Origin: Candidatus Magasanikiibacteriota bacterium | Lineage (GTDB): Bacteria > Patescibacteriota > Patescibacteriia > Magasanikbacterales > GWA2-37-8 | Length of the DNA: 64,000 bases | Assembly: GCA_016182085.1 (NCBI GenBank) | Contig: JACOYB010000008.1 | Span: 10,507 to 74,506, forward strand | Direction of reading: 5' to 3' | Shown: positions 34,167-55,059 of the stretch, one piece after another | Position numbering within the stretch: position 1 is the stretch's first letter | How the letters are laid out: every line of letters starts with the position of its first letter | Notes under the pieces: model-generated | The model's input: only the letters and a program-made list of their open reading frames with translations | What the model was told of the DNA's origin: nothing | The model's database searches: none | Made by a program: the position numbers and the translations under genes

Positions 34167-34338
34167 TTTGTGCCCCCAGCATGAATTGGCTTCGGCTCTT
34201 ACTCGCTTCCACTCATTCGGCCTAGCCACCGCCTCGCGGCCGCACTCGCCAGCCTGCGTCGTGCGACATCACTCCGGCGTTCAATTCATATCGCAACACA
34301 CGCAGGTGTGTTGCGCTTTGTGCCCCCAGCATGAATTG
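34167..34338. repeat. 22-bp direct repeat of the tRNA-Arg 3' end around a structured spacer
   Basis: TTTGTGCCCCCAGCATGAATTG at 34167-34188 and 34317-34338. Confidence 0.9.
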
Positions 34339-34392
34339 AACACACATCTTACCCTTAGGACGGGTCTGTTCTATCCGTTGAACTATGGGGGC
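34321..34392 (-). tRNA. tRNA-Arg(CCT)
   Basis: GCCCCCA/TGGGGGC acceptor, GTTC/GAAC D-arm, ACCC-GTCCTAA-GGGT, T-loop TTCAATT; TTGTCA-17-TATAGT promoter upstream. Confidence 0.88.
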
Positions 34393-35681: not shown

Positions 35682-35927
35682 ATGCCTAATATTCAAAGTG
35701 CGAGAAAAGAACTTCGTAAAGCCAAAAAACGCGCCGCCTTAAATAAATTGCGCCGCGATACATATAAAAATTTGCTAAAAACCGCCGTGGTTTCCAAATC
35801 TGCAGATGCAGTCAAGGCCGCTCAAAAAGCCCTAGACAAAGCCGCTAAAAACGGTGTTATCAAAAAGAACACCGCCGCCCGCAAATTGTCCCGCTTGATG
35901 AAAAAATTGAATAAGACCAAAAAATAA
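35682..35927 (+). CDS. rpsT: 30S ribosomal protein S20
   Basis: MPNIQSARK..LDKAAKNGVIKKNTAARKLSRL. Confidence 0.97.
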   Translation: MPNIQSARKELRKAKKRAALNKLRRDTYKNLLKTAVVSKSADAVKAAQKALDKAAKNGVIKKNTAARKLSRLMKKLNKTKK

Positions 35928-35942
35928 AGCTTAGTATAAATT

Positions 35943-36057
35943 AAAATAGGTATTGTATTTTGCAACACACCGGAGGCCGATTCGCATCGGCCGAGGTCTG
36001 AAGCGACCAGTCGCCACAGCGACTGGGACGCTGTTTGCAAAAGACAATACCTGTTTT
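35943..36057. ncRNA. Three-way-junction element, copy 1
   Basis: Core nearly identical to 54717-54835; closing stems differ in sequence but both pair. Confidence 0.65.
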
Positions 36058-36093: not shown

Positions 36094-37059
36094 TTAACTC
36101 AATCTCGCTACAAACAAATCAATAAGCCAAGACTGGTCCGCAAGACCGGTCTTTGTTTTTATATCTATTTCCAAAAGCTGATTATAAATATCTTTTAATT
36201 TATCAAGCGAATATCTTTTAATAAGCGGTAATGATTTTTTTACCACAAACGGATGAAGCCCGAGCATTTTTGCCATCTGGTCGCTGGAAATATTTTCTTC
36301 TCTATTAAATAAATCACGAAGTGAAATAAGAATTCTAAACTGGCGCAAAATCATACTAAATAAATATCCGTCGTCTTGTCCCAAGCGCCTCTGATCTTCA
36401 ATTAGTTTGAACGCCAACTTTTGATTGCCGGCGACGATCGCATCAACCATATTAAAGATATTATCATCGGATTTTTCTTCCAAAAACAACTGTACATCAG
36501 AAAGAGCGATCTCTTTTGTGCCAGCATACGCCACCAGCTGATCAATGAGCGAACTGGCATGCCACATATCGCTCCCCGCGTGCTCTGCCAAATAATTTAA
36601 CGCGGCGGCGGAAATTGTACCACCGCGCGCAACAACTTCATTTTTTATCCAAGAAGTAAGTGCTGCGCCGCTAAGCAATGCAAATTCTTTAGCCCATGTT
36701 GCTTTAGCCAATATTTTATGCAATTCCTGAACGACCTTGGATTTTCCCATTGGCTCGGATTGGTAAAAAATTACAACGTTTTTTTCGGGGATTTTATTCT
36801 CTTTCACTCCTTGGATAAAGGACTCCAGTGTATCTGCATCTTTAGTAGATAAAATATTTTGAATAACTACAAGTCTTTTCTCCGCCAAAAATGGCATGGC
36901 AGTTATTTCATTCCACAAACGGCTGCTTTCTTCCTTTTGCCCATTCAAAATCACCACATTCATGCCTTGCGGGTCTCTTTCTTTTTTAAATCTTTCTATC
37001 TGTAATTTTAGATAGTTGTGGCTGGAAAATGTATCTTCGCCGTAAATATATATAATCAT
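36094..37059 (-). CDS. holA: DNA polymerase III delta subunit
   Basis: MIIYIYGED, MPFLAEKRLVVI, IFNMVDAI, LHPFVVKK, D..KTG. Confidence 0.92.
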   Translation of the reverse strand: MIIYIYGEDTFSSHNYLKLQIERFKKERDPQGMNVVILNGQKEESSRLWNEITAMPFLAEKRLVVIQNILSTKDADTLESFIQGVKENKIPEKNVVIFYQSEPMGKSKVVQELHKILAKATWAKEFALLSGAALTSWIKNEVVARGGTISAAALNYLAEHAGSDMWHASSLIDQLVAYAGTKEIALSDVQLFLEEKSDDNIFNMVDAIVAGNQKLAFKLIEDQRRLGQDDGYLFSMILRQFRILISLRDLFNREENISSDQMAKMLGLHPFVVKKSLPLIKRYSLDKLKDIYNQLLEIDIKTKTGLADQSWLIDLFVARLS

Positions 37060-37241
37060 AATAATTAGCTTTCCAATAAGCATTACAATTTTAATGCTTA
37101 TCTTCTTTTTTAGCAATATTTTACATTGACAAAATCAAAAAAATATAGTAGTGTGGGTCTCACCCATATATGGTGATTCCTTCGGCGGAACTAATATCCG
37201 CCAGCACCTAACAGGGCTTTTCCCTTCCGAAACGGAGCATC

Positions 37242-53050: not shown

Positions 53051-53716
53051 TTATTGCCTCAAATTTCTCGCAGTAGCCTTATATGCTTTATTTAATATTT
53101 GAAATAAATAATTAACACCGGCTACATAATTTCCGCCATCAGCAGCATTCAAAGCGTCCAAATATTTATCCTTGTTTTTATTTATAATAGAATTTATCAT
53201 AACTGGGTATGTCAATTCTGACAGGTGCTCAAAGCGTAAAACCAAGCACATTAATAATCTTGCCATTTTACCATTTCCATCAGTAAATGGATGGATTATA
53301 ACGAACTTATGGTGAATATACCAAGCAATAAATAATTTAATAGTTAATTCCCTATCAATCTTTTTTGTTGGTTTATTTACTACATATTTCAAAAATGCTT
53401 TTTTATACATTGGCGCCCATCTACGCTTATTATTAATAAATTCAATTAAATTTAAAATCTCGGCTTGTATAAGCCACGGCTCACTTGGATTAAAAGTTTT
53501 TCCCTCTATTTTCAATTCGTGCAAAGCTGTTCTGTATTTTCCTGCTTCCTTTATATTGTGCGCTAAAAGAATTTTATGTATGCCTAGAAAAAAACTCCCT
53601 GGTAATTGGAGTTTTTTTCGTTCAATTTTATCAAGCTGCCCTGCGGCTGCTGAAGTAGCACGCCGAAGATCATTTATTTTGCGCCGCATGCTTGGTATCA
53701 TATTTAACATGGGCAA
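53051..53716 (-). CDS. Fic family protein
   Basis: HPFTDGNGKMAR. Confidence 0.88.
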   Translation of the reverse strand: MPMLNMIPSMRRKINDLRRATSAAAGQLDKIERKKLQLPGSFFLGIHKILLAHNIKEAGKYRTALHELKIEGKTFNPSEPWLIQAEILNLIEFINNKRRWAPMYKKAFLKYVVNKPTKKIDRELTIKLFIAWYIHHKFVIIHPFTDGNGKMARLLMCLVLRFEHLSELTYPVMINSIINKNKDKYLDALNAADGGNYVAGVNYLFQILNKAYKATARNLRQ

Positions 53717-53895
53717 AATTTATGTTTTTCTTCTATTTCTACTGAGCTTTGACTTTCTGCGTCAATCAACCTATTAGTTATTTCCTTTCTATCATTCTCG
53801 TTTAATTTTTTGAATTCGCCAAAAGAATCCCTATATATTCTTATAGCACCATGCAAGCCCTTTAGTTGTTTTGTATCAATTTTTAATTTTTTCAT
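53704..53895 (-). CDS. Small ORF with Fic inhibitory-helix-like motif (antitoxin or frameshifted N-terminus)
   Basis: ESQSSVEIEE; overlaps the Fic start. Confidence 0.6.
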   Translation of the reverse strand: MKKLKIDTKQLKGLHGAIRIYRDSFGEFKKLNENDRKEITNRLIDAESQSSVEIEEKHKFCPC

Positions 53896-54228: not shown

Positions 54229-54297
54229 TTGTCATTCCCGCCAAAGCGGGAATCTAGTCGACAATTGTCTGGATTCCCGCTTTGGCGGGAATGACAA
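54229..54297. repeat. 69-bp REP-like doublet between rnpA and yidD
   Basis: Two inverted GTCATTCCCGCCAAAGCGGGAATC units. Confidence 0.92.
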
Positions 54298-54302
54298 TAA
54301 AA

Positions 54303-54698
54303 CTAAACTTTTAAAACCTTCGCTTTAGATAATAATACTTTTATTTCTTGGCTAATCTCTGGGTAATTTTTATTCAAAATATCTTTTTTTGCTACCACAA
54401 GTATATAGTAGCCATTTTTTATGGCCCCATCCTTAATTAACAGCCGAACAGCCTCACGGATCTGTCTGCGAACTCGGTTGCGCTTCACGGCGCTTTTATG
54501 CACTTTTAATCCCGTAGAAATTGCTAGCTTTAGCTGATTTTTAAAACTTTCCGGATCCTCTTTTTTTGGAAAAAAGTTTTGATTTTTGGCTAATTCTAGG
54601 GCCTTTATATCCAAAAACTGGCCATTTACCCAGCGACCATGCTTTAAAATTAAATTAAAATCCCTAACTTTTCTTAAACGATTGTCTTGTTGCAGCAT
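54303..54698 (-). CDS. rnpA: Ribonuclease P protein component
   Basis: RL.K..DF, KVHKSAVKRNRVRR. Confidence 0.95.
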   Translation of the reverse strand: MLQQDNRLRKVRDFNLILKHGRWVNGQFLDIKALELAKNQNFFPKKEDPESFKNQLKLAISTGLKVHKSAVKRNRVRRQIREAVRLLIKDGAIKNGYYILVVAKKDILNKNYPEISQEIKVLLSKAKVLKV

Positions 54699-54716
54699 AA
54701 TAAAAATATTATATCA

Positions 54717-54835
54717 GGATACCACCTTTTTGTCTTGGCAACACACCGCGGGCCAATTCGCATCGGCCGAGGTCTGAAGCGGCCAATCGCCACAGCGATT
54801 GGAACGCTGTTTGCCGAGATAAATAGGTGGTATCT
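54717..54835. ncRNA. Three-way-junction element, copy 2
   Basis: Core nearly identical to 35943-36057. Confidence 0.65.
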
Positions 54836-54836
54836 A

Positions 54837-54881
54837 AATTAAACATAAAACCCGCGTTTCTAGCGGGTTTTATGTTTAATT
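54837..54881 (-). terminator. Terminator-like hairpin after rpmH
   Basis: AATTAAACATAAAACCCGC-GTTTCTA-GCGGGTTTTATGTTTAATT. Confidence 0.75.
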
Positions 54882-55059
54882 ACCAGGTTTTTCTTGTTCT
54901 CTTGCCCTTGCGTTCGTCTGAAACCGTGAGCTTCTTTCTACCCTTAGCGCGTCTGCGGCTTAGTACCGCACGTCCACCCTTGGTTGCCATTCTGGATCGA
55001 AAACCATGGGATTTTGCTCTCTTTCTTTTTTTAGGTTGATAAGTTCTTTTTGTTGCCAT
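54880..55059 (-). CDS. rpmH: 50S ribosomal protein L34 (59 aa, missing from the ORF track)
   Basis: Manual translation [59 protein letters not shown]. Confidence 0.97.

Follow-up and report, generated by a model that had tools for sequence, protein, structure and literature searches.

An interspersed, structurally constrained three-way-junction repeat at gene ends in Magasanikbacteria-type genomes

Several described families of small folded repeats come close to the element reported here, a branched repeat of roughly 120 bases that was noticed in the window, i.e. the whole stretch of 64,000 nucleotides of a Candidatus Magasanikiibacteriota contig (JACOYB010000008.1) that was analysed. REP, BIME and REPIN sequences, as presented in the accessible part of PMC6006769, are multi-copy extragenic palindromes with lineage-specific variants and a presumed recognition as single-stranded DNA hairpins, and the element resembles them in all these respects. 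The inverted doublets described in the same part of that source are frequent in one distant carrier of the element (G243), and none was seen in the family of the window. The element differs from REP sequences (PMC6006769, in part) in being three to four times longer, in having a three-way junction and in possessing a hypervariable closing stem of 20 bp. REP repeats carry a GT[AG]G tetranucleotide at the foot of the hairpin (PMC6006769, in part); within 30 nt of the two core ends of the element we found GTAG in 2 and 4 of 48 copies and GTGG in 1 and 1 of 48, and no RAYT (TnpA-REP) gene was present among 183 flanking ORFs or in the source genome (G000). Rickettsia palindromic elements (RPE) and the prokaryotic MITEs ERIC, RUP and QMITE, in the accessible part of PMC10969869, share with the element a length of ~100-150 bp, a non-autonomous nature, strong folding and a mostly intergenic location near the 3' ends of genes, with sometimes an in-frame location in conserved genes. 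Compared with the account in that part of the source, the element is unlike them: the sequence of its terminal inverted repeats varies, the search for a target duplication found none, it has no known parent IS, and the conservation resides in unpaired purines of one strand.

NTS/dRS3 repeats and Ssn-related motifs, described together with the Ssn GIY-YIG single-stranded DNA nucleases in the available part of PMC11893778, are also relevant: such repeats surround small GIY-YIG genes in G000, and one related repeat family has the same arm-1 hairpin module as the element. The published SRM pattern, taken from that part of the source, matched none of 48 copies and 17 places elsewhere in G000. The attC sites of integrons (PMC5027507, in part) have in common with the element a structure that is kept while the sequence varies, a G-T and purine bias to one strand (G-T 1.24 against 0.39 per site in attC, about 3 to 1, or 63 against 22, in the element), a conserved extrahelical base and a better-folding strand that is antisense to the upstream gene. 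Unlike attC as described there, the element has no cassettes, no integrase and no conserved R boxes, and it is branched rather than rod-like; by inspection, the boxes RYYYAAC and GTTRRRY are not conserved across the element family. Finally, the pneumococcal SPRITE (PMC3049150, in part) is similar in its duplex of ~18-20 bp, its T-tracts, its location near stop codons and its enrichment between convergent genes, but SPRITE is a simple duplex followed by a U-tract, whereas the element has a GC-rich conserved three-way core capping a variable stem. The element behaves like a REP/RPE/MITE sequence but fails the specific tests for REP, SRM, MITE terminal repeats and attC. An Rfam scan, which an earlier note on this DNA had proposed, matched only tRNAs at the gathering score in the window, gave nothing credible over the element at E <=10 or in 12 divergent loci at E <=1, and matched the element to no Rfam family. 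Among the openly accessible papers listed in our literature searches, none described this repeat family or the tRNA-associated family B introduced below.

The two window copies (Table 1) have cores of 77 nt that are ~90% identical over 80 nt and occupy the positions assigned to them by the earlier note. Its description of closing stems of about 20 bp, unlike in sequence yet both paired, and of a compensatory change in one arm was also borne out, with a two-sided change in arm 2 between the copies. As full units, copies 1 and 2 have folding z-scores of -9.1 and -8.5 on the + strand, where 0 of 200 shuffles were as stable, and of -8.2 and -7.1 on the - strand. The closing stem of copy 1 has 19 pairs (17 Watson-Crick, one G-T and one other mismatch), and its core contains a 4-bp P1, a 3-bp P2 closed by C-G, a G-G-A / G-A internal loop and a P3 with a bulged A. 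Copy 1 scores 88.1 bits with the covariance model R2, to whose training set it belonged. The core of copy 2 has copy 1 as its nearest neighbour among 98 copies; its defects are a mismatched A-C pair in arm 1 and, in a loop, a G where 91 of 93 copies have A, and the bare core without the closing stem folds weakly (z -1.8).

Table 1. Coordinates of the element copies, their neighbours and the family B copy in the window.
Feature	Position	Strand	Remarks
Family B copy	34167..34314	-	behind tRNA-Arg(cct) (34321-34392)
rpsT (S20)	35682..35927	+	left neighbour of copy 1; Pfam PF01649; convergent with holA
Copy 1 closing stem (P0), 5' arm	35943..35961	+	pairs with 36039..36057
Copy 1 core	35962..36038	+	P1, P2, internal loop, arm-1 hairpin, junction, P3, arm-2 hairpin
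Copy 1 closing stem, 3' arm	36039..36057	+	
holA (DNA polymerase III delta)	36094..37116	-	Pfam PF06144; stop codon 36 nt from copy 1
Terminator-like hairpin 3' of rpsT	36129..36153	+	outside the element
rnpA	54303..54698	-	left neighbour of copy 2; Pfam PF00825
Copy 2 closing stem, 5' arm	54717..54737	+	pairs with 54815..54835
Copy 2 core	54738..54814	+	77 nt, slightly degraded
Copy 2 closing stem, 3' arm	54815..54835	+	
Hairpin directly 3' of rpmH stop	54837..54881	-	between rpmH and copy 2; outside the element
rpmH (L34)	54880..55059	-	right neighbour of copy 2; Pfam PF00468

Across the family of copies, the + strand presents a variable closing stem (median 18-21 bp, depending on the context class), a 4-bp P1 whose sequence varies freely by inspection, a 3-bp P2 closed by C-G and a G[G/C]A / GA internal loop. 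Next come a hairpin of 7-8 bp with an expandable tip, a short junction rich in purines, a P3 of 3 bp that bulges an A, and the second hairpin. At its foot, the closing stem has a GA/GA mismatch in 25 of 48 copies. In an alignment of 48 distinct copies, which was fitted to the model and leans towards the structure, 93.8% of the cells are paired and 33 of 36 pairs, with examples in every helix, show two-sided changes, counts to which related genomes contribute non-independently; 0 of 500 shuffles match this, and slid controls are 30-47% paired. Among the first 93 of the 98 copies as aligned, a few unpaired letters are nearly invariant: the 3' side of the arm-1 loop reads G-A-G in all 93, the letters facing it are G in 92 and A in 91, and the bulged A is found in 92.

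The + strand is the strand that carries the conserved fold as modelled here, because of the G-T bias, the invariant G·A loops and the stronger folding of +. On this strand, the non-Watson-Crick transition pairs are G-T rather than A-C in the closing stems (63 against 22 in 88 stems, after five short ones were dropped) as well as in the core helices (27 against 9), and the + strand folds better in 43 of 48 copies as RNA and in 39 of 48 as DNA. The earlier note had weighed G-U pairs and purine-rich loops for + against a GCGA tetraloop for -. The G-T counts agree with the former, and many hairpin loops do read as GCGA or cYNNGg on the minus strand, which we take to be RNA-stable loops of the GNRA or cUNCGg type.

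The source genome holds five copies, as found by each of two covariance models, and not the two initially noticed; of the three others, one follows pilB, one follows secY and one separates an arginase gene from gatB. The covariance-model search that the earlier note had suggested also revealed copies across the family, the class and the phylum. With model R2, the element was detected in at least 16 of 100 genomes and 9 of 41 genera of the Magasanikbacteria-type family, with at least 1-14 copies each, and in at least 7 of 151 genomes of the class; with model R3, it was detected in at least 6 of 151 genomes of the phylum and in at least 11 of 101 genomes around G323, all of these being lower bounds because the best 26-40 candidates per genome were scored. 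The element is rarer outside the family. Nonetheless, G243, one of the genomes around G323, has at least 29 copies, many of them as inverted pairs ~40-90 nt apart. The hits of a strict pattern comprised 13 stretches in genome contigs and 20 in metagenomes; viral contigs gave none. Three loose patterns applied to viral carriers were dominated by chance: 15 of 361 listed loci passed a crude structure filter, which passes just 60 of the 98 known copies, and none of the 15 resembled the element by eye. The element is an interspersed, structurally constrained, non-autonomous repeat.

The occupancy of individual sites is patchy. Of 15 genus members with readable DNA, 2 have the element after rpsT, and the closest relative, with an S20 protein 96% identical, has no element there; the gap between rpmH and rnpA is occupied in 3 of 15. 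Three more sites of G000 and two of G004 are empty or have unrelated hairpins in relatives. Relatives show nothing, a plain hairpin or an unrelated repeat at these sites, and clean empty sites are not available because the whole spacer differs between relatives. A ribosomal-protein leader or trailer was rejected on account of this patchiness (absence after rpsT in 13 of 15 and at rpmH-rnpA in 12 of 15). The earlier note had placed both copies just 3' of a small ribosomal protein gene. The neighbours rpsT and rpmH are confirmed, but the link to ribosomal-protein genes does not hold, and an sRNA, ribozyme or processing signal tied to such genes is not supported, given the patchy presence, the many unrelated flanking genes and the mostly antisense orientation of the better-folding strand. 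Among the 183 nearest flanking ORFs, those with a Pfam family are housekeeping genes, many of them unrelated, and about one fifth has no Pfam family. The terminator-like hairpin of rpsT is found in 15 of 15 genus loci with or without the element, and the 3' hairpin of rpmH is retained in relatives without it.

Certain gene ends recur as sites of the element across genera, namely those of secY, rplL, tsf and ndk. The holA/rpsT gap of G173 contains two tandem copies in the opposite orientation, and this pair is an independent arrival. In distant members, in-frame copies are found inside uvrA and leuC, each absent from a sister genome, and also in dnaX-like and dinB-like ORFs named by eye. The suggestion in the earlier note of a structure under selection, or of a mobile single-stranded DNA hairpin, is supported by the covariation, the patchiness, the in-frame insertions and the presence of up to 29 copies per genome. 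Its contrary picture of an ordinary REP, with many randomly placed copies lacking covariation, is right about the many scattered copies and wrong about both covariation and placement, which is non-random. In sister species (G003, G001, G014, G004 and G012; loci L050, L053, L038, L141 and L137), the rpmH-rnpA, rpsT-holA and secY-adk intervals contain other, unrelated long hairpin repeats, and these three gene ends look like insertion hot spots. At the nfo/yidD site of G004 (L255 17943-18046), a stem arm overlaps the last codons and the stop of yidD. The C-terminus of YidD there is unlike that of relatives, which, with the overlap, raises the possibility that the gene acquired its present end from the element. 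In the window, the space between nfo and yidD is taken up by a Fic-domain gene and a 63-aa ORF (53051-53895, -); G004 and G001 carry the element there instead. Between rnpA and yidD (window 54231-54297) lies an inverted pair of repeats of a dRS3/SRM-like type (PMC11893778).

The orientation of the copies follows a rule. Among 82 copies from the family and from metagenomes, 41 have both neighbours on the minus strand, 4 have both on the plus strand, 33 lie between convergent and 3 between divergent genes, and one is undetermined; in the full set of 98, ten gene contexts were hand-corrected before counting where the ORF caller had overlooked short genes such as rpmH. In 41 of the 45 co-directional sites, then, the minus strand is mRNA-sense and the + strand antisense, so that the better-folding strand is usually kept out of the mRNA. 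Convergent sites account for 33 of the 82 copies, compared with 88 of 876 gene pairs in G000. Outside the family, the 16 copies divide 6 to 4, a balance that comes in part from the inverted pairs, each of which contributes one copy to either side. The two window copies had been described as lying in opposite orientation relative to their ribosomal protein genes. Copy 1, however, sits between the convergent rpsT and holA, and relative to the gene on the minus strand (holA or rpmH) both copies are oriented alike, as most members are; holA, a gene ending on the minus strand, is the typical neighbour type. We also considered replication-strand bias as the cause of the orientation and rejected it: with local GC skew as a rough proxy for the replication strand, all five G000 copies are consistent with it, but only 17 of 26 convergent sites fit and 7 of 30 co-directional sites are contrary.

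We consider it probable that the element is a gene-less, REP/RPE-like repeat, gained and lost at gene ends, and that a putative single-stranded DNA nuclease or recombinase, which would read the + fold and not the sequence, likely copies it in trans to new sites. The mobility is deduced from the distribution. The substrate would be the + strand folded as single-stranded DNA, and the copies that persist might mostly be those at gene ends whose orientation leaves the mRNA free of the stronger fold. Within a genome, the cores could be homogenised by gene conversion or by fresh insertion, whereas the closing stems would drift and be re-perfected arm against arm. When transcribed, the minus strand may serve secondarily as a terminator or 3' protector.

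The search for a mobilising enzyme covered the neighbourhoods and the source genome. A Pfam scan of 185 proteins, two of them added controls, found no transposase, integrase, GIY-YIG or DUF559 protein among the 183 nearest flanking ORFs, and neither Pfam nor tblastn, in two queries, found a Y1 transposase in G000. The GIY-YIG genes of G000 are at least 8 kb from any copy, with no copy flanking one, and the small ones inspected are bracketed by other repeats. A direct repeat of a stem arm within 600 nt was absent from 86 copies, the single hit being an assembly gap; with fuzzy ends and diverged empty sites, this comparison covers repeats of an arm and not short target duplications. Two candidates for an autonomous parent were rejected. 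In G243 (L300 2174-3887), two inverted copies with longer 5' extensions stand 1.5 kb apart and bracket comEC, with no mobile gene between them. At the RAYT-like locus of G141, the repeat is another one, with only the arm-1 module in common with the element. This locus (L086 950-1915) encodes a 238-aa RAYT-like protein scoring 74.5 bits with NF047646, below the cut-off of 80, with GTAG/GGAG-footed repeats on both sides of the gene and one in frame inside it; Pfam at 1e-6 missed this protein, so that distant RAYTs could be overlooked. The arm-1 hairpin module also occurs in other repeat families of these genomes, namely an SRM-like family, the repeats around the RAYT-like gene and family B. As a module shared by several repeat families, it points to no single enzyme. 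This separate SRM-like family with the same arm-1 hairpin was seen in relatives (L003, L005, L011, L013, L014, L016, L017, L019, L021-L023 and L025-L027), which implies that hairpin modules are interchangeable across the repeat families of these genomes.

How the copies evolve bears on the origin of their stems. Cores cluster by genome: the two window cores share an identity of 0.91, as do the two G012 cores at the same sites, but between the two genomes the same-site values are only 0.70 and 0.72. Divergence is faster in the stems than in the cores (identity 0.39 against 0.77 in G000 and 0.53 against 0.85 in G030), the mean identity of closing-stem arms within a genome being 0.37-0.73. The stem differences in G030 are mostly two-sided (521 two-sided against 174 one-sided in pairwise comparison). 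The stems at rpmH and nfo/yidD show a tendency to be similar to those of other genomes at the same site (0.61-0.78). A weak stem consensus exists across unrelated sites and genera, and nearly the same stem occurs at three G030 sites.

A second repeat, family B, is found behind tRNA genes. In its window copy, a hairpin precedes a stretch antisense to the T-arm of the tRNA and a three-way core similar to that of the element; the 3' end of the tRNA is then repeated directly over 22 nt. A scan with the arm-1 module identified seven full copies in G000, each behind a tRNA gene on its sense strand (the others at C1:10393, C1:64461, C3:64282, C6:93118, C11:28586 and C11:288749), with a direct repeat of the tRNA 3' end of 12-22 nt and an antisense arm that matches each tRNA's own T-arm. 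The family B pattern was present in 37 of 100 family genomes, and reversed-pattern controls gave 0. Among 30 loci, one per genome drawn from these 37, 29 sit 33-92 nt behind a tRNA gene, and in 26 the tRNA tail recurs as a direct repeat over at least 10 nt, the 5' arm being antisense to the tRNA T-arm. The core has a 3-bp P2 with a G[G/C]A / GA loop, a bulged A and often a GA/GA mismatch at the foot of the stem. Judged from these matches, the closing stem of family B appears to be derived from its target. A truncated copy, reduced to the antisense arm and the beginning of the core, lies behind tRNA-Leu(caa) near 153188 of C11 (+) in G000. A family B copy also lies behind the gene at C11:288821-288910, ~700 nt from tRNA-Ser(GCT), for which ARAGORN predicts a tRNA-Ser with the anticodon ACT. 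An ACT anticodon is unusual in bacteria.

Family B raises an alternative for the element, in which the stem would be written anew at each insertion, with one arm taken from the target and the other its inverted copy, so that stems would be insertion records or guides. The family B loci (29 of 30 behind a tRNA gene, 26 of 30 with a repeat of its tail) and their arms antisense to the T-arm, the similarity of the two cores in P2, the G[G/C]A / GA loop and the bulged A, and the tendency of the element's stems to outpace the cores in divergence and to follow the site are compatible with it. The empty rpsT site of G001 has a sequence like the right arm of the G012 copy, but this site may be a relic of a deletion. 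In the element, no duplication of either arm was found within 600 nt in 86 copies, and the weak stem consensus together with the three nearly identical G030 stems implies that stems travel with the element. The best family B score with model R3 was 17.1 bits (E 0.07), below significance, and for that reason homology of the two families is not demonstrated. We regard this alternative as unlikely. A broader version, in which the element and family B are two branches of one undescribed gene-less mobile class, with a three-way handle read in trans and a stem rewritten at each insertion as the antisense of the target, is a tentative and doubtful proposal, and the link between the two families is an analogy, not a result.

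The probable reading as a gene-less repeat copied in trans must also be weighed against retention by the host as RNA, in which the minus strand would act at the ends of abundant mRNAs, as an extended terminator or as a 3' stabiliser, or the + strand would be a small structured RNA or a ribozyme, and selection on the RNA would explain the covariation. The RNA-stable loops of the minus strand and the recurrent gene ends fit selection on the transcript as well. So do the mRNA sense of the minus strand in 41 of 45 co-directional sites and the T-tracts (six or more T among the 8 nt that follow the final G-C pair of the stem) found on the minus strand of 19 of 31 convergent sites, counted with 4 of the 10 hand-corrected contexts, the enrichment between convergent genes being as in SPRITE (PMC3049150, in part). 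However, a T-tract is present in just 14 of 46 co-directional sites, and the wobble bias, like the invariant G·A loops, points to the strand that in most cases is not the mRNA. Presence at a site is patchy even among close relatives, rpsT and rpmH retain their own hairpins with or without the element, copies are found in frame inside genes, and Rfam gave no match. Copy 2, moreover, has the rpmH hairpin on one side and a promoter-like site for rnpA on the other: a consensus scan of the minus strand of its 5' arm places a -35-like hexamer 17 nt from a TG-TATAAT box. This box stands 9 nt before the ATG of rnpA (window 54708-54736, -), and a similar one is retained in relatives, which suggests that rnpA has its own short-leader promoter, apart from rpmH. 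Taken together, these observations make retention as a host RNA quite improbable.

An attC-like folded site, with which a tyrosine recombinase would move the adjacent gene as a cassette, could account for the location 3' of stop codons, the better folding of the antisense strand and the G-T ratio of ~3 to 1, but it is very improbable and largely refuted by the shared gene order, as the core genes keep their conserved order (secY-adk, rpmH-rnpA, groES-groEL, atpD-atpC) with or without the element, no integrase is found among the flanking ORFs, the AAC/GTT boxes are not conserved and the stem arms change together, which cassette shuffling would break.

In summary, a false lead has been removed in that the element is not a ribosomal-protein regulator. 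The spread of REP- and RPE-type repeats is poorly understood, and this family offers a handle on it with its invariant unpaired bases, exchangeable stems and orientation rule. Family B may be more surprising than the element at rpsT and rpmH itself, and its arm matched to each tRNA makes stem writing directly testable. If the two families were indeed branches of one class, they would represent a self-reprogramming guide within a 120-base element, and an enzyme reading a shape plus a programmable arm, if there is one, would be of interest as a tool. The analysis delimits a repeat family, so far unannotated, by which gene ends are remodelled and loops are added to proteins in the streamlined genomes of Patescibacteria.
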